Below, in pieces: positions 14,775-44,530 of a stretch of DNA of 64,000 bases. Source of the stretch: Octopus vulgaris (Eukaryota); NCBI GenBank assembly GCA_951406725.2, contig OX597814.1, positions 128,526,001 through 128,590,000 on the forward strand, written 5' to 3'. The notes beneath the pieces are model-generated. The model searched no databases. It worked only from the letters and a program-made list of their open reading frames with translations, and was not told where the DNA came from. A program made the position numbers and the translations under genes. Positions within the stretch are counted from its first letter, which is position 1, and the number at the start of each line of letters is the position of its first letter.

Positions 14775-16220
14775 TTAACCATCTACTTTGATACTGCTGC
14801 TTGACTGTTCTTTTCTCAATGGTGTGTGGCTAAATCGTAAGTTAAATTTACAAGAGCGTTTTATGCAAACGTTTTCAGCTGAAGTTTCTCCAGAGTCATG
14901 TTTTCTTTTACTGTTGCGATGGTGAGGTTTGGATGATTTGTGATCACCAATTAATTGTTGTTGCCAGGCCAAAAACCGTTTCAGAACGTGCCGTTTTTCG
15001 GAATTACACTTCTTTTCTTTGCTGGTCGGGAACTGCATGCAGTTCAGGGACAAAGTTCTATTTGGAACAGAGTTTGTCTTTCGCTTGCTTCTGGTCGCCA
15101 TTTCTGAAAGCTTTTGAGAAGAGATTTCTTCTGATATGTTTGAGTGGGAATGTTGATTTTGAGTGCTGTTAGCTGACCGTAGGTGAGAGCCACTGCTTTC
15201 AGAAATATTTTGTGTATCGAACAAATGTGAGCTGAAGAAGCGTTTTGTAAGCTTTTCTTTGAAATCAAGTTTACCACGAGATAAAATAGTTTTGTTGGGT
15301 GTGACCTTCTCTTTTAAGGTGACTTTATCACTCAATCTACTTTTACATAGCTTATCATCAATCTTGTGAGTTCGTGTTCTTAACAAATTTGGTCGTAGAC
15401 TAAGCCGCCTTTGAACAAGTGGAGACGTGGATACTGACAAACTACTGAGGGAAAAGTCTTTGCTTTTGACAGCAGTAGTTTCTTTATTTTCACTTGGTGC
15501 AGTGTCATCACAGATATTAGCATTGTGGTCAATTTCTCCAGTCTCAGCACACCGAGAACCATCACTCCCTAGATCACTACTTTCATCATCTTCTTCTCCA
15601 GACAAACATAAAGAAAACCGCATTCTTGATGTACGATACAGTTTGCCAGCAGAAAGATTTTCTGGTTCTTTACAAATAGAAATTTCAGGTGTTATATCTC
15701 CATCTGATGATGTATCTCCTATAGAGGAAGGAGAAGCATTTAAGTTGTTGTTTTCTGAAGATTCAGTGATGGAATTGTGATCAAGAGAGGGGTTAGTCTC
15801 TGAATCAGACCTGCAGTCATTAATGTCAACATTGGATGTGTTAAGTAGTAAGGAATTAACTTTAGTTCTGTCATTTTCTAAAGGCAGGTTTTCTCCCTGA
15901 ACCTTGACCTGTATCTGGCCAGCGGTTATTGGTGTAGCAGTCAGAACAGGTGCATGACACTGACCATTATTAGCATTAGGCAGCAAGTGTTGTTTTAGAT
16001 AAGCATTGATGTCCATGCTCAGTTTGTGTTGTTTGTTTAGCTGTTGGATGTGTTCTTCTCGTCGGCGCCGTAAGCGTTCTAATTTGCTTGGTCCCATAGT
16101 ATCAATCATAACAACAACACAAGTGGTATTATCTGCTTTCAGCATCCGTTCATGCCATTTTTGAAGAGCAAAATTGACTAAGTGTTCTGCTGGGTTATTC
16201 CAGTATGTCAAGGGGGACAA
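14775..16220 (-). CDS. PPM1D: PPM1D/Wip1 phosphatase, terminal coding exon (end of PP2C domain plus long low-complexity/basic C-terminal tail)
   Basis: 481-codon open frame starting exactly at a polypyrimidine-CAG acceptor (ttttcag|TTG at 16220), phase 0. AEHLVNFALQKWHERMLKADNTTCVVVMID matches the PP2C motif-11 region of Wip1 as I recall it (human ...[20 protein letters not shown]). Stop TAA at 14775-14777. Confidence 0.93.
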   Translation of the reverse strand: MSPLTYWNNPAEHLVNFALQKWHERMLKADNTTCVVVMIDTMGPSKLERLRRRREEHIQQLNKQHKLSMDINAYLKQHLLPNANNGQCHAPVLTATPITAGQIQVKVQGENLPLENDRTKVNSLLLNTSNVDINDCRSDSETNPSLDHNSITESSENNNLNASPSSIGDTSSDGDITPEISICKEPENLSAGKLYRTSRMRFSLCLSGEEDDESSDLGSDGSRCAETGEIDHNANICDDTAPSENKETTAVKSKDFSLSSLSVSTSPLVQRRLSLRPNLLRTRTHKIDDKLCKSRLSDKVTLKEKVTPNKTILSRGKLDFKEKLTKRFFSSHLFDTQNISESSGSHLRSANSTQNQHSHSNISEEISSQKLSEMATRSKRKTNSVPNRTLSLNCMQFPTSKEKKCNSEKRHVLKRFLAWQQQLIGDHKSSKPHHRNSKRKHDSGETSAENVCIKRSCKFNLRFSHTPLRKEQSSSSIKVDG

Positions 16221-17741
16221 CTGAAAAAGAAAAAAAAAATTCTATAATAATGAATTTATTGTATAGTGCACAGATGCACAACTTGTCAGAAGAGAAAAGA
16301 CAAAATAGAAGCATCTATTCAAATAAAGAAAGACAACAATAGTAGTTAAAAGTGCATGCACAGTCCACAGACTAAAACAGAAAAAAAAATTCATTCTCAA
16401 ATAAAAATCTCTCCATATTAAAGTGGCTGAGAATGATAAAGCCCAACAATAAAGAGAAGGTAGAGATATTGGAATACATTCTGTGGTTCCTATATTTTAG
16501 TTTTTGGGTTAAAATATGCATAAATAGGTGCAGGAGTGGCTGTGTGGTAAGAAGCTTGCTCCCCAACCACATGGTTCCAGGTTCAGTCCCACTGCGTGGT
16601 ATCTTGGGCTTGTATTTTCTTCTATTGGCTTCTGTTTGCTGAAGTGCTAAGTTATGGGGATGAAAACCAACCAACCAATACCAAATGACAAGCAGTGGGA
16701 AAAAAACACACACATACACATATACAACAACTATGTTTGGTTCAGTTCTCAAGAACATGCAATGACAACATTACATTTGCTTCTTTCAAAAATGCTGCAC
16801 CAAATCTTATCTGTACAACTATGTTTCTGAAACTTATCTGCAAAATTGCTTCTTTTTTGTACAATCCCATATTAGACAAATGTCCAGCAACTTATTCTTT
16901 ACACTCCTGTAACACCAAAGAGCCCTGCTAGGGTACAGGTAATGTCTTATAAGTTTTATTATCATCATCAAACGTCCACTTTCCATGTTTGCATTGGTTA
17001 GACGGAATTTGTTGAGGCAGATTTTTCTACAGCCACATTCTCCTCTTATCACAAAACTGCAACTGTTTTTTAGCAAGGTCATATTTTTTCCATGGAAGAC
17101 TGGAAATGAACAACCTCACTTGCATGATGATAAAACTCATTTACAATAATCATGTGACATCTAGACAAATCCACCTATAAGGTAAGCCCAGAGCTATAGT
17201 AAAAGACACAAAGTGCCATGCAGTGGGACTGAACCAAAGACTACATGATTAGGAAGCAAGCTTCTCAGCCACACAGCCAGATGTCTGCAACTATCTTAGT
17301 TTATATAGAAAAAAACAAAAGCACAATGTATTTTAATTACAAAAAATTAAAAACCAATAGAAGAATAACAGAGTCTTATGCATTTTTGATGGAAACAATG
17401 GTTTAGTCATTGTTAATAATCATCATTGTTCTATGTTGATATTAGTTGGAGAGGTCTACTGTATAACATGCAGCCACTGGGCTCAACATCCAGGGATCCA
17501 ACCTCAATGTTTCTACCAATGAGTACTTTCTAGTGTCAGACATACTATAGGCTACTCCTAGCAGACGTAAGCCAAGAAAAACTTATTTATCTTGTTATGT
17601 GACATTGCTAGATAATAGAAGACACTCTCATCCAAATCCAACCAATAAACTATACACGAAAGTAGTGATAATTACAGAATATAACAACTATTTTGCAGGT
17701 CAATGAATGTAATCATAACTTTATGGTTAGAAACTACTTAC

Positions 17742-33000: not shown

Positions 33001-34789
33001 AACTTCACTGGTGTTGGTGAAACAGAAAAGCACTCAGTACATTCTATAAAAAAAGTTTGTATTAGGAAGAGCATCCAGCTGTAAAAACCATGTGGAAACA
33101 AACATTGGAGCCTACTGCAGTCCCGTAATATGTTGAAGCTTACCAAACTGTCCAACCCAATCCAGCATAAAATATAGATAATAAGTGATGATTATATATA
33201 TGTGCCATGTAAAAAGCATAGGGCTGGTACCACATAAACAACATTGGTGGAGGAGCCATGTAAAAAGCACTGGTGCTGGTGTTAGGAAGGGCATCGACCA
33301 ATAGAAACTATAATGAAACAGACAATGGAACCTGGTGCAGTTCCCAACCTTGTCAGCTCCTGTCAAACCATCCAACTCATACCAGCATGGAAAACAAAAG
33401 CTAAATGATGATGACGAGGATATACATACAACATGGTTTCAGGTTCAATCCCACTTTATGGCCACTTGGGCAAGCGTCTTCTACAATAATCATGAGACAA
33501 CCAAAGCCTTGTGAGTATATATATATATATATATCATCATCATCATCATCATCGTTTAACGTCCGTTTTCCGCGCTAGCACGGGTTGGACGGTTCAACCG
33601 GGGTCTGGGAAGCCAGGGGCCGCTCCAGGCTCCAGTCTGATTCTGGCAGAGTTTCTACGGCTGGATGCCCTTCCTAACGCCAACCACTCCGTGAGTGGAT
33701 TGGGTGCTTTTTACGTGCCACCTGCACAGGGGCCGGGGGTCCGGCATCGGTCACGATCGGTTCGAGCTTTTAACGTGCCAGGGACACGGGGGCAACGGGA
33801 TGCGGGGTAGAGTTGAGTTGGGGGGGGGGGTCCAGCTGAGAAAGGTTTCACCAGTGAAAAGAGAGGGAGAGATAGTAAAGGGGTGCAGGTAATATAGGGG
33901 AGCACCAGTGGGGAAGGTTGGGGGAGGAGGAACGATGGCAGGAAGGGTTGGTGAAGGTTCGTAAGAAATATAAACGTAGGATGTGTATATATATATATGG
34001 GTAGGTGTGGGGAAGGTTGGGGGGGTAAGGAGGAACGATGGCAGGAAGGGTTGGTGCAGGTTCGTAAGAAATAAAAACGTAGGATATTACGAGGCATGGA
34101 GGGGACTGGAAGGAGATAGTAGGATTGAGGCAGTGTCAGATTCAAAACAGGAGGAAGCGTAAGATCAGAGGGCGGTTGATGAGCTGAGACGCTAGCAGCT
34201 TGTCTTTTCTCAGTGAAAGCATATGAGGAGAAGGGGTAGGAAGGGGTGGTGGGGGAGGAGGAGGGAGTATCCGGTGTAGATGGTGAGAACAGTGTTCACC
34301 AGTATTGGTGGTATTGGCGGTGGGGGGTGGGTGGTATTGGTGGTGGGGGTGGTATTGGTGGTGGGGGTGGTATTGGTGGTGGGGGTGGGAGGGCGGGCGC
34401 ACCGCGCAATGGGAGAAGATGAGATTTTTAGGCGGCAGAAAGAAAGACAGGATTTGAGATGGAATGCTTTGCGATCGTGTGCATAAGTTTCTATGAGTGG
34501 AAGTTGGGAAAAGATGGGTTAGAGAATTAAGCGACAGAAAGAAAGACCAAATTTGAGACGAGATGTTTTTGCGAAGTTTTTGTGAATGAAAGTTTATATG
34601 CTTCAGCTAGCATTTGAGACGAAAGACAACGATAACGCCAATATATGGGGAAACAATAATAATAAGAAGGCTTGATGGTGATGATGATACTTGCAAAAAC
34701 AATGAAAAGAAGGAACAGGACTTAGCTGATATTTTTCATCCTGCGTATTGGCTAAGCCTGTGGAAGCGATATATATATATATATATATA

Positions 34790-34986
34790 TATACTTTATT
34801 TAAAGCAGCAGAAAAAATTGATATATCGGTTCCATTCTAGCAAAAACTGTCCGATGAACGGCAACGGGAAACTCAGAGTAACAGGTTTTGTTGAATTTTC
34901 TGCTGCTTTAAATAAAGCATATTGCTCTACCACTGGTATTTGAGTACTCTTTTTTCCACCTTTTTTCACATTTATGTGTTTACTCC

Positions 34987-34990
<4 letters not shown>
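34790..34990 (+). mobile_element. Probable solo pseudo-LTR / 3' fragment of a second Penelope-like family, inserted in (TA)n
   Basis: ~200 bp flanked on both sides by (TA)n. Has a ~25-bp inverted repeat (ctttatttaaagcagcagaaaa / ttttctgctgctttaaataaag) enclosing a hammerhead-like motif, followed by a T-rich tail. Confidence 0.55.
34841..34890 (+). ncRNA. Minimal type I hammerhead ribozyme-like motif
   Basis: CAAAAACTGT-CCGATGA-ACGGCAACGG-GAAACTCAGAGTA-ACAGGTTTTG: 10-bp stem I with one mismatch, CCGAUGA core, short stem II with a GCAA loop, stem III ACTC-A-GAGT, GUA triplet ending at 34880. Confidence 0.62.
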
Positions 34991-35025
<35 letters not shown>

Positions 35026-35779
35026 TATATAAATCCTTTAAAATGTTTCAGCCCAAAATCTGTGGCCATGCTGAGGCACCACCGTTGACTGTGCTACACT
35101 AGTATGTGAAACCCCCTCTGATACATGGCACTTAGTCAACAAGGGAGTTCGACACTGCTGCCCGCATCTGTGTTTTCTGCAGAAAGGTAGGTTCATCTAG
35201 AACATACATACATACATATGTGTTTGTGTGTCTTGACATTGCATGATGGTTGTAAAATGAATATCACTGCTGTGCATGTAGAGTTGTTCACTTCCAACCT
35301 TCAGTGCAAAAACAAATGAGGGTTGGTGACAAGAAAGGCATATGGCAGTAGAAAATCTACTTCAACAAATTCTGCTTGACCCATGCAAGCATGGGAATGT
35401 AGATAGTAAAACAATGATAATTATGTTGCTGCTGACATATATATATATATATATTATTTATATTATTATATGATTGAATGCCACACATCCTCTTCCAAGT
35501 AAGTTATATATAATATAATACAAGATTGCCATGGCTTATTCATATATTCAATATCATGCAAAGTGTTCTGGCTAATTTTGAATAACTTTGTATATAATAT
35601 GTAACTATGGAAATTAAAAAGATTTTGAACTTTTGCCAGATGGTTTAATGAATAGAAATATCTTGAGAAATTTTCGCCATCTCTTTATATAGAAAACTTT
35701 GCATCTGAATATTTGATAGACAGAGTGTATAAAATATTTATATGAGTGAAAACAACTGACCATAAGTGAAAAGCCCTCA

Positions 35780-39523: not shown

Positions 39524-39526
<3 letters not shown>

Positions 39527-42038
39527 ATAAAACGGTAAGATAACAAAAGAAAGAAAGAGACCTCAATATTATGTAAATAGAGGAAATTTATCTATACAAT
39601 ATGTTACATTACTCGGTAGTCAAGATAAAACTCTGAGTTTCAGATGCCGAAGTGGAAATCCACAACACCATCTCTTCGGTTATCTGGCTATTTGAAAACG
39701 TTATGAAAAAATACCGTTAAAAATGAAGGGAAATTACTCTGTTATAACTCTGCTTTGCCTGCGTACTTATACATCGCTCGCATTTTTCGTCATAAAAATT
39801 ATATAAAAATACATAAAAATATATAAAAATATATAAAATCTTCTTGGGACATAACACAGAAAACATGTTCTATCCGTTTTCTTTAGGGGACCAAAAACGT
39901 AACAGAAATTTAGTCACATGTGGGCATGATCCGAAAAGCTCTGTCCTTGTATTTAGACATGTGGTAGGGTCTAAGCTGCTTTTCCAGATAAGCCATCTCT
40001 CCATGTCGCATAAACCGCACCTTCCGCTGCCGTTAGTATAGGGCTTACATCTGGCCAAAATCTTCCATTGTATGTTATAATCAACACCTTTATCTCTTAA
40101 AGACCAAATATGATTGGATAATTGTGTCGCTTTTCTTTTGTTCCAGTGCCTAAAGCTCAAAGTGTGGTTATTGAACCTGGCCTTGAAATTACCCTCTGTC
40201 AGGCCCACGTATTTCTTCGTCGAAACGGTGTCTTTAGTGGTTATAGAGTTTACGGTAGCTTCATATATGATGGTCTTGGACATGCAAGCTCCATTTAGCG
40301 GGCACAATTCTTTATTCCTGCATGAACAGCTGTTTTCTTCTTGTGTTTTTTGTATGTTATGATTGATTATGTTTTTAAAATTAGTAGTTGAACTAAAACT
40401 AATTTTTAAATTGTGTCTATTGAAGAGTTTCCTATAAGCATGGTTAACTGGAAAATGTCTATCTATCAGTGCTAGGAAATATTTACCTATATTGAAGGCC
40501 ACCTCGGGTGAGTAAGGGGGCGTAAACCAGATGACCTTCCTATTTCTATTATTCCTTTTCCTTATTGTTGGGCTGGTGATAGGTGTATATTTTATTTTTT
40601 CGCTAAAACCACTATCTTTTAAAGCTTTATTATAAACTGGGGCAACGCTATTGAAGATGTCCTCATTAGATGAGAGGCTAGAAATCCTCTTACTAATATT
40701 TTTAACTAAATTTTTGAATACTATAGGGGGATGGCATGAACCTACATTAATATAACTTAGTCTATCATTGGGCTTCCTATAAGGCTTATAAATATTATTA
40801 TTAAGATCTAAGGAAACGTCTAAGAAATTGACAACCGTCAGGTTAGTGTCTATAGTTATACTAAGTCCGAAGTGTTTCATTAACTGGATAATATCCTTCC
40901 TAAAACGATCTTGTGCTGGTCCATTTGTATTAGCTGTTAAGGCGAGGGCATCATCTTTGTAGATGGCGAAATGTACGTTAGGGAATGTCTTACCGAAGGT
41001 ATCTAGGAGAAAGAGTCCAATTAGATCACAGATGCCTGCCCCATCATATGAACCCATGCTCACATCGAAAGCGCCCTCCGTGTCGGTGTTTTTACCCACT
41101 TTGCATTCTCACTGAAAAGTAATGTCTTTCTAGCATGGAAGATTATATCCTTATCATTGGTACTAATTTCTATGAAGTCACTAGCGAAGATTAGGGCTTT
41201 ATCTAGCAGTTCTTTAGAGATAGAGGCATAAAAATCAACAATATCGAATTGTGTAAACCTCGCTTTTTCTTATTCTTAATAGCTTTAAACCAGTCTACGA
41301 CTTCTATACTATTGGACCATTGCACTAGCCTAGTATCGGTCTTAATTTTCGTATTTATTTTATCTAAAATTTCTTTGCTAATAATCCCTAGTTCTGACTT
41401 GGCTGGGTTGATAAGCCTACATTTAGGATTGGAAAGGAAGTTTTCTTTGTGGTCTTTAATAGTAATAAAGGCCTCTTTTTGGGGGGAGGGTTTCTATTTT
41501 TTTATCTAATTTAAGTTTAGCGGCGATGACGCTAGCTTCTTTATTAATTTCGTTATATGTCTGTGCCCTAGCCTTAGTATAATTATTAATGATGCTGTTG
41601 TGTAAGAGTTGTGTGTATTTGCTGTTATCTACCAGGTATAAGTTCTTGGTTTTATCCGAAAAAAGTGCTTTTTTCTTGGAGCTTTTTATATGATCAATAT
41701 CTTTTTTCAATTTATGTTGGAAATTGTTAAAAGACTTACGAAACTTTATTTTGCTCATGATCTTCAGCAGGTCCGCTTCGAAATCTTCCAAGCCTTTAAT
41801 CCTAGGAGGGAATTTTTTGGATTTTATCCGATAGCAAATGTTTTCCTTGGTGTTCGCTTCTGTGTCAAAAAAGAAAGCCTTCCATCTCATACGCTTAATT
41901 ACATCAGTAATTTTTTGCAGAAGTTTCTTAGAGTAAAAATCCTTTGATGGGATCGGTATATTTTTCATAGAATAATCTATGTGATATGCGTCCATATTAG
42001 ATTCTTTTGTTTGTGAGAGTCCTCAACCGATGTTAGGC
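39524..42038 (-). mobile_element. Penelope-like retroelement (RT + C-terminal GIY-YIG endonuclease, Hydra-clade-like), left copy of inverted pair
   Basis: ORF pieces 41995-41456 and 41099-39870 encode YSMKNIPIP/KRMRWKAFFF, RT motifs (MGSYDGA..CDLIG, YKDD, NFLDVSL, YRKP), a CxCx5Cx5C linker and GIY-YIG motifs (IIY..YVG..KARFNNH..H..CxxC..LN). Frameshifts occur only at homopolymers. The 3' end abuts (TA)n. Confidence 0.92.
39623..39685 (-). ncRNA. Mirror copy of the hammerhead-like motif in the left PLE
   Basis: Exact reverse complement of 44434-44496. Confidence 0.6.
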
Positions 42039-42073
42039 CGTATTAGCTCTTAGTTGAGAATAACGGGATTATC

Positions 42074-44530
42074 GCCTAACATCGGTTGAGGACTCTCACA
42101 AACAAAAGAATCTAATATGGACGCATATCACATAGATTATTCTATGAAAAATATACCGATCCCATCAAAGGATTTTTACTCTAAGAAACTTCTGCAAAAA
42201 ATTACTGATGTAATTAAGCGTATGAGATGGAAGGCTTTCTTTTTTTGACACAGAAGCGAACACCAAGGAAAACATTTGCTATCGGATAAAATCCAAAAAA
42301 TTCCCTCCTAGGATTAAAGGCTTGGAAGATTTCGAAGCGGACCTGCTGAAGATCATGAGCAAAATAAAGTTTCGTAAGTCTTTTAACAATTTCCAACATA
42401 AATTGAAAAAAGATATTGATCATATAAAAAGCTCCAAGAAAAAGCACTTTTTTCGGATAAAACCAAGAACTTATACCTGGTAGATAACAGCAAATACACA
42501 CAACTCTTACACAACAGCATCATTAATAATTATACTAAGGCTAGGGCACAGACATATAACGAAATTAATAAAGAAGCTAGCGTCATCGCCGCTAAACTTA
42601 AATTAGATAAAAAAATAGAAACCCTCCCCCAAAAAGAGGCCTTTATTACTATTAAAGACCACAAAGAAAACTTCCTTTCCAATCCTAAATGTAGGCTTAT
42701 CAACCCAGCCAAGTCAGAACTAGGGATTATTAGCAAAGAAATTTTAGATAAAATAAATACGAAAATTAAGACCGATAGGCTAGTGCAATGGTCCAATAGT
42801 ATAGAAGTCGTAGACTGGTTTAAAGCTATTAAGAATAAGAAAAAAGCGAGGTTTACACAATTCGATATTGTTGATTTTTATGCCTCTATCTCTAAAGAAC
42901 TGCTAGATAAAGCCCTAATCTTCGCTAGTGACTTCATAGAAATTAGTACCAATGATAAGGATATAATCTTCCATGCTAGAAAGACATTACTTTTCAGTGA
43001 GAATGCAAAGTGGGTAAAAAACACCGACACGGAGGGCGCTTTCGATGTGAGCATGGGTTCATATGATGGGGCAGGCATCTGTGATCTAATTGGACTCTTT
43101 CTCCTAGATACCTTCGGTAAGACATTCCCTAACGTACATTTCGCCATCTACAAAGATGATGCCCTCGCCTTAACAGCTAATACAAATGGACCAGCACAAG
43201 ATCGTTTTAGGAAGGATATTATCCAGTTAATGAAACACTTCGGACTTAGTATAACTATAGACACTAACCTGACGGTTGTCAATTTCTTAGACGTTTCCTT
43301 AGATCTTAATAATAATATTTATAAGCCTTATAGGAAGCCCAATGATAGACTAAGTTATATTAATGTAGGTTCATGCCATCCCCCTATAGTATTCAAAAAT
43401 TTAGTTAAAAATATTAGTAAGAGGATTTCTAGCCTCTCATCTAATGAGGACATCTTCAATAGCGTTGCCCCAGTTTATAATAAAGCTTTAAAAGATAGTG
43501 GTTTTAGCGAAAAAATAAAATATACACCTATCACCAGCCCAACAATAAGGAAAAGGAATAATAGAAATAGGAAGGTCATCTGGTTTACGCCCCTTACTCA
43601 CCCGAGGTGGCCTTCAATATAGGTAAATATTTCCTAGCACTGATAGATAGACATTTTCCAGTTAACCATGCTTATAGGAAACTCTTCAATAGACACAATT
43701 TAAAAATTAGTTTTAGTTCAACTACTAATTTTAAAAACATAATCAATCATAACATACAAAAAACACAAGAAGAAAACAGCTGTTCATGCAGGAATAAAGA
43801 ATTGTGCCCGCTAAATGGAGCTTGCATGTCCAAGACCATCATATATGAAGCTACCGTAAACTCTATAACCACTAAAGACACCGTTTCGACGAAGAAATAC
43901 GTGGGCCTGACAGAGGGTAATTTCAAGGCCAGGTTCAATAACCACACTTTGAGCTTTAGGCACTGGAACAAAAGAAAAGCGACACAATTATCCAATCATA
44001 TTTGGTCTTTAAGAGATAAAGGTGTTGATTATAACATACAATGGAAGATTTTGGCCAGATGTAAGCCCTATACTAACGGCAGCGGAAGGTGCGGTTTATG
44101 CGACATGGAGAGATGGCTTATCTGGAAAAGCAGCTTAGACCCTACCACATGTCTAAATACAAGGACAGAGCTTTTCGGATCATGCCCACATGTGACTAAA
44201 TTTCTGTTACGTTTTTGGTCCCCTAAAGAAAACGGATAGAACATGTTTTCTGTGTTATGTCCCAAGAAGATTTTATATATTTTTATATATTTTTATATAT
44301 TTTTATGTATTTTTATATAATTTTTATGACGAAAAATGCGAGCGATGTATAAGTACGCAGGCAAAGCAGAGTTATAACAGAGTAATTTCCCTTCATTTTT
44401 AACGGTATTTTTTCATAACGTTTTCAAATAGCCAGATAACCGAAGAGATGGTGTTGTGGATTTCCACTTCGGCATCTGAAACTCAGAGTTTTATCTTGAC
44501 TACCGAGTAATGTAACATATTGTATAGATA
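42074..44530 (+). mobile_element. Penelope-like retroelement, right copy of inverted pair (ATG 42117, stop 44239)
   Basis: Reverse complement of 39589-42038. ORF pieces 42783-43622 (FDIVDFYASI, YKDD) and 43607-44239 (GIY-YIG). Lacks the last ~65 nt present on the left copy. Confidence 0.92.
44434..44496 (+). ncRNA. Type I hammerhead ribozyme-like motif (variant core) in the PLE 3' region
   Basis: AGATAA-CCGAAGA-GATG..CATC-T-GAAACTCAGAGTT-TTATCT: stem I AGATAA/TTATCT, core CCGAAGA...GAAA, stem III ACTC/GAGT, GUU triplet ending at 44490. Deviations from consensus are U4C and one extra U before G12. Confidence 0.6.

Follow-up and report, generated by a model that had tools for sequence, protein, structure and literature searches.

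The closest described relatives of the octopus elements reported here are the PLEs of the Hydra clade, for which the relevant sections of Craig 2021 (PMC8557442) describe an ORF of ~700 aa with a C-terminal GIY-YIG domain, RWK and DKT motifs, targeting of (TA)n, an inverted, truncated 5′ copy with a tail on one side only, and a type I hammerhead with a short palindromic stem III. These features are shared by the Octopus vulgaris family under study, here termed family B. In File S2 of that study, a 1-nt loop III and an unpaired position beside stem II are common in the Hydra rows, and stem III of the form ACUC-N-GAGU with a 1-nt loop is present in elements from coral, sea cucumber and Hydra. 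Family B differs from the published Hydra elements by a tail of 71 nt instead of 30–40 nt, a 3′ UTR of ~1 kb and a stem II of only 2 bp. All 26 published Hydra rows have U at position 4 of the hammerhead core, whereas 58% of the motifs found here have C, a comparison to be read with the fact that the published descriptors were built on CUGANGA.

For Poseidon of Anolis, the part of Frangieh 2024 (PMC11167929) on this element places the tail between two internal priming sites, with uncleaved RNA as the template and no ends at the cleavage site, as appears to apply to family B; Poseidon belongs to another clade, however, its hammerhead overlaps the ORF start and priming takes place inside the ORF, whereas both ends of family B are located upstream of the ATG. 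The minimal PLE hammerheads of Cervera and de la Pena 2014 (part of PMC4209133; see also the review PMC6765202) resemble the family-B motif in their dimer-dependent fold with low in vitro activity, an extra nucleotide after A9 and the occurrence of many solo truncated copies, but the core variant named in that part is U3-A8 and not U4C. The U4C substitution is described for a viroid hammerhead, which according to a passage in PMC3088659 is slower in vitro and viable in vivo; that case concerns one viroid variant, as opposed to thousands of copies in several families here. Finally, non-LTR retrozymes (parts of PMC7229834 and of Li et al. 2026, 10.64898/2026.07.22.740005) have a type I hammerhead and a proposed PLE origin, a description which fits another octopus family (family D, see below), but not the unit studied here, which is continuous with an ORF and is not a tandem monomer.

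The unit at 34790..34990 and its family

The window is a stretch of 64,000 nt of O. vulgaris contig OX597814.1 (forward strand, 128,526,001 to 128,590,000), and positions below refer to the window. The unit, and the larger element used for comparison, have the following features:

34769..34793, no strand: left (TA)n target tract, from the sequence
34794..34815, minus strand: inverted arm, a 22-bp perfect reverse complement of 34896-34917 which stops at the short end of the family; longer versions in other copies
34816..34988, plus strand: forward arm, consisting of the last part of the family-B 3′ UTR, the hammerhead motif and the tail; 97–98% identity to the best other copies
34847..34884, plus strand: type I hammerhead-like motif, from the sequence and pairing counts, its layout checked visually against Craig 2021 File S2
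34847-34850 with 34881-34884, plus strand: stem I, 4 bp adjoining the core
34851-34857, plus strand: core CCGATGA, with C at position 4 (34852)
34859-34860 with 34865-34866, plus strand: stem II, 2 Watson-Crick pairs with a GCAA (GNRA) loop and an A·G mismatch at 34858/34867 (10.1-11.1)
34868-34871, plus strand: GAAA
34871-34879, plus strand: stem III, ACTC-A-GAGT, with a 1-nt loop at 34875
34880, plus strand: A at H17, with predicted cleavage 3′ of A34880 (site GUA)
34918..34988, plus strand: 71-nt tail between the short end and the long end, which in full copies runs on via a 67-nt leader to the ATG
34989..35031, no strand: right (TA)n target tract, from the sequence
39524..44527, no strand: comparison element, an inverted insertion of Hydra family A with two frameshifted ORF arms, long end on the left arm and short end on the right
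near 39629-39679, minus strand: mirror hammerhead motif of family A
44440-44490, plus strand: hammerhead motif of family A

The initial annotation presented the unit as a discrete, non-autonomous mini-element of ~200 bp between (TA)n tracts, with a 25-bp inverted repeat enclosing the ribozyme. The tracts were confirmed, and a genome-wide DNA search with the unit gave 1,117 candidate places, the best 40 at 97–98% identity. Other copies reach varying 5′ points, up to the full ORF, and many have an inverted arm of variable length, so that the unit is not discrete. The inverted repeat is perfect over 22 bp only and represents the shortest form of the variable arm, the window copy, with 22 bp in its inverted short-end arm and 173 bp in its long-end arm, being the minimal case.

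Full family-B copies have the order 3′ UTR, hammerhead, tail, ATG and a 711-aa RT/GIY-YIG ORF, and long inverted pairs hold this ORF ~1 kb upstream of the motif, which contradicts a non-autonomous mini-element. Among 30 loci chosen with an ORF probe, 12 contain the junction of 3′ UTR, hammerhead, tail, 67-nt leader and ATG, and four (L067, L071, L082 and L085, all with U4) have an unbroken ATG-to-stop ORF of ~711 aa. The window's own C4 subfamily is joined to the same ORF at L095 and L096, with 87–93% amino acid identity in the main segments and with frameshifts. No intact ORF was present in the two long C4 copies examined, and C4 copies could therefore have moved in trans via a sister subfamily.

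The family-B protein has the RT DD at 346, YTG..R at 598, RWK at 37 and DKT at 113, and lacks CCHH in a literal-string search. With published proteins compared by eye, the ORF, RWK, DKT, the lack of CCHH and (TA)n targeting would assign family B to the Hydra clade, of which it is a new family; the element itself is ordinary. A Pfam scan gave no family for the B protein and a sub-threshold GIY-YIG for A. The ORFs of A and B are 40% identical, and a quick protein tree, made with 40 of 120 listed, unnamed homologues and with one fusion left out, did not resolve A and B as sisters and put family C on an unreliable long branch; as had been suggested, the hammerhead-like motif thus sits in a separate lineage. 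The reported lack of flank similarity to the large element also held (nucleotide z 0.1–0.5 against 2000 shuffles), and a remote similarity between the tails of A and B was rejected by the shuffle test. A CxCX5C linker is intact in family A and in 7/30 family-B ORF copies. Its second Cys is Tyr in one copy and Phe in 22 of these 30 young ORFs (L065-L094), of which the sampled arms are still in (TA)n.

Insertion in (TA)n, an inverted truncated 5′ arm and a one-sided tail were all found in family B, whose 3′ ends are fixed at two points 71 nt apart, located 37 and 108 nt beyond the predicted cleavage site; family A has the same layout, with ends 38 and 105 nt after its predicted site. The long end was present in 14, the short end in 13 and another end in three of the 30 arms that had been anchored downstream of the core. 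An inverted partner was located within 1.5 kb for 18/30 arms, and all seven cleanly classified pairs combined one long with one short end. This anatomy matches that described by Craig 2021 and Frangieh 2024 and so supports a double-priming account, in which the element's enzyme would prime reverse transcription twice on uncleaved RNA, at the long end and at the short end, with both reactions stopping early to leave the truncated and inverted arms. Formation of the tail by internal priming at two sites is carried over by analogy from the Poseidon biochemistry in that part of PMC11167929, and may apply here. Ends of different hammerhead families were also seen nested at the same (TA)n sites (G000:C1:2221132 and 2221884; L016; L267), sometimes on one strand and <1 kb apart.

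The unit is very probably the 5′-truncated, 5′-inverted end of an ORF-bearing Hydra-clade PLE family in (TA)n, likely formed from two primings on uncleaved RNA which both stopped early. That it is instead an independent mini-element or retrozyme of ~200 bp, moved in trans by PLE proteins, we consider highly improbable, even though copies with an ORF are far fewer than short ones (435 candidate ORF places in the genome versus about 8,474 end arms), an intact C4 ORF was not seen in the two long copies, and a true retrozyme, family D, is present in this genome. Against it, the 5′ ends are scattered and extend into the 1-kb 3′ UTR and the ORF, the tail leads into the leader and ATG and not back into the unit, and no head-to-tail short repeats were found among the copies examined; L095 and L096 largely refute it. 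An ORF-less head-to-tail monomer layout (170–400 nt) was likewise absent from the window unit, so the retrozyme guess applies to family D and not to this unit. The window unit, with its predicted self-cleaving motif, is an unremarkable truncated member of a second autonomous Hydra-clade family.

Family D (L259-L283, e.g. L274 and L277; G000:C1:84907410 and 93938214) lacks an ORF and is arranged head to tail in units of ~363–366 bp. Its type I hammerhead is well paired and fixed for U4C, and stem III has either a one-base loop or none. The family has inverted arms, targets (TA)n and possesses two 3′ ends separated by about 55 nt, features consistent with a non-LTR retrozyme that is mobilised by the machinery of PLEs.

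Hammerhead structure, stem III and position 4

The motif, its CCGATGA core, stem III and A34880 are located where the letters had predicted, and all positions of the hammerhead core (CUGANGA...GAAA and an NUH site) are present except for U4C. Stem I, initially given as fully pairing, has an A·G mismatch (A34846/G34885) in its 10-nt register, with 4 bp adjoining the core. Rfam scans in gathering and E-value modes gave no hammerhead match to the motif. Three copies of the stem III 12-mer are present in the window, where chance would give 0.45 on average, and the expected high frequency in the genome was borne out by 13,170 matches to stem III plus core, with none for a reversed control. Different stem I sequences do pair, as proposed, with 4 bp in family B, 6 bp in A, 3 bp in C and 4–6 bp in D, stem II has 2–4 bp across families and stem III is palindromic, with the helices kept under sequence change. 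The suggestion that a 1-nt loop III implies dimeric folding agrees with what is published for PLE hammerheads; for the monomer, the lowest predicted energy was −11.2 kcal/mol versus −8.1 kcal/mol for the hammerhead, so that the hammerhead would not be the preferred fold.

Stem III had been thought cephalopod-specific, which is contradicted by ACUC-N-GAGU in 5/26 Hydra rows of Craig 2021 File S2. Among these, Penelope-3_HM has the same A loop and an identical stem III 9-mer, and Hydra-2_aMil has the same 4-bp stem I, A at H17 and ACUC-N-GAGU; Hydra-1_oBim has a different stem III, and a close relative of it is present in this genome at L119. By comparison of these rows, stem III is a trait of the clade.

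Position 4 is C in 7,676 and U in 5,494 of the 13,170 genomic matches, which agrees with the notion that U4C is frequent in this genome. A class defined jointly by CCGANGA and ACUCAGAGU did not hold up: the two are uncoupled, with U4 in 42% of the ACUCAGAGU motifs, and C4 combined with other stems III in families D and E. In family A, the p-distance was 0.186 among U4 arms (n = 7) and 0.075 among C4 arms (n = 18). In family B, with loci picked by best identity left out, the most diverse group was C4/C7 (0.050, n = 6), and C4/U7 (0.012, n = 7) and U4/U7 (0.014, n = 11) were both young. Family C has C4 in 9/13 arms and family D in 97/100 among the matches listed (490 matches), C4 is also seen in single copies of other families, and the large family L103-L120 mostly keeps U4. 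The subfamily trees were short and weakly supported, with no starred branch in B, and the direction of U/C change is tentative. U4C thus recurs in at least four families, including the separate 363-bp retrozyme, and is no class marker, as its state flips within families. The simplest reading is that position 4 is under relaxed U/C constraint, and that U4 and C4 each drove bursts of thousands of copies; decay of CpG may aid the change from C to U.

The logic of stem III and dimers is already in print, while recurrent U4C is apparently unreported for PLEs: literature searches, whose coverage did not extend to the likeliest source (Lunse 2017), found no report of U4C in PLEs, of CCGANGA, of an octopus hammerhead on this subject or of heterodimers. 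A metagenome scan gave two loci, one with flanks (L257), which has U4 and a different stem III. Searches fixed on CUGANGA would miss over half of the motifs (7,676/13,170). The genome also supplies natural pairs, U4 versus C4 and 3-bp versus 2-bp stem II, in amplified subfamilies, and since both members of a pair were amplified, whether PLE hammerheads must cleave at all becomes directly testable.

Two further families were observed. Family C (L122-L146), the third to share this stem III, is old and carries mostly C4; many of its copies are short fold-backs with their centre immediately 5′ of the core, and one copy, L142, leads into a decayed Hydra-like ORF. A very abundant family (L103-L120) has a canonical U4 hammerhead-like motif with a different stem III, and accounts for most of the first 100 matches listed out of 14,035 (control 4,395).

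Evidence on cleavage

Family-B arms matching an anchor just 3′ of the predicted site number about 8,474. Homology on the 5′ side is lost at the cleavage site in 136 arms, compared with 56 in one control window placed 5 nt further 5′ (2.4-fold), counts for which the control anchor differs in length and both patterns catch part of the breaks. Among 30 site arms, eight proved to have indels or internal deletions, 17 were fold-backs and five simply ended, and A17 was kept in 18 of the 22 non-indel arms, where it is inside a 4-nt microhomology; the excess at the site is explained equally well by indels, internal deletions and fold-backs via this microhomology. When breaks were sampled blind to the site over a 12-nt window, 16/30 were non-indel and these were spread, with one at the site. 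There was no clear peak of cleavage-defined 5′ ends in the genomic copies, and in ~98% of copies the sequence continues across the cleavage site, so that nearly all insertions derive from RNA that was uncut, or re-joined, at this site.

Internal deletions between short direct microhomologies take part or all of the hammerhead at L204, L211, L201, L224, L232 and L237, some of them spanning the interval between the two arms of stem I. These deletions could reflect the RT slipping across folded RNA.

We lean towards the motif being a slow ribozyme, dependent on a dimer or on protein, which would need either a second copy (with stem III swapped, normally the copy in the transcript's other pLTR) or the protein of the element. 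It is rather unlikely that the family-B motif is a decaying relic which no longer cleaves, with the element spreading without cutting. Such decay would account for the read-through in nearly all copies and for a stem II of 3 pairs in the most diverse subfamily which in younger ones has 2 pairs with A·G, A·A or A·C, and it accords with the lowered in vitro activity of the U4C viroid (in the passage of PMC3088659) and with hammerhead mutants that left Poseidon insertion in vitro unblocked (in the part of PMC11167929 concerned); on the other hand, every B subfamily seen has an intact core, stem I and stem III together with a GNRA loop II, A and B retain the motif though their flanks cannot be aligned, an unpaired 10.1-11.1 position is common in the published Hydra rows (Craig 2021 File S2), and natural hammerheads with a 2-bp stem II exist. 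Another proposal is that of a selected, lineage-wide CCGANGA/ACUCAGAGU class in which identical stems III would allow families to heterodimerise and trigger each other. Families A, B and C carry exactly the same stem III 9-mer, the predicted energy of the swapped duplex is −7.4 kcal/mol, and shared (TA)n targeting puts ends of A and B at a distance of 750 bp on the same strand (G000:C1:2.22 Mb); A/B heterodimers may thus be possible as far as sequence goes. We nevertheless doubt the proposal strongly, as the 9-mer or its loop variants are found in coral, sea cucumber and Hydra elements, for which shared ancestry or a small sequence space is sufficient explanation, C4 is not tied to the 9-mer, other families here use different palindromes, and older B arms often have C or T in the loop.

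A-to-G changes at A34880 and another open frame

A-to-G at the two bases on either side of the predicted cleavage site, window 34880-34881 (corresponding to L095:1075-1076), was observed in two runs guessed to be RNA and not in genome-like runs, and is a candidate for ADAR editing. Cephalopods have heavy RNA editing, and UA is a favoured ADAR context in inverted-repeat RNA. At 34880, the change amounted to 15% of depth across 26 contigs in X1 (organism A) and to 18–21% across 22–31 contigs in X7 (organism B), with A-to-G in X7 also at 34881 (17%) and 34875 (3%); these values come from contigs of public runs, with the kind of run guessed. X3 (also guessed RNA), X16 and X17 gave 0, X15 (organism A) gave 0.013%, and G is found at the position of 34880 in 1/106 genomic arms. 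The change is possibly ADAR editing, and the UA context alone may explain editing in inverted-repeat RNA, which need not be regulatory. Cleavage is blocked by G at this position, and inosine is taken to have the same effect (passages of PMC3923133, in which the position tested was the neighbouring one). No natural case of ADAR acting at hammerhead position 17 was found among the papers listed in a literature search.

A further-reaching and quite unlikely idea is that the hammerheads of this lineage are slow switches, in which U4C would have spread repeatedly in unrelated families and the retrozyme, while host ADAR would edit A17 to inosine in dsRNA formed by inverted copies and so block self-cleavage. 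If true, the ribozyme of a retroelement would here be under natural control by RNA editing; if the A-to-G change is editing, it links cephalopod RNA editing to ribozyme control.

Elsewhere in the window, a 488-aa open frame with a long low-complexity tail is located at 14775-16241 on the minus strand. A Pfam scan of this frame gave nothing; its start resembles what we take to be the end of a PPM1D/WIP1-type phosphatase domain, and it is probably a last exon of the host.
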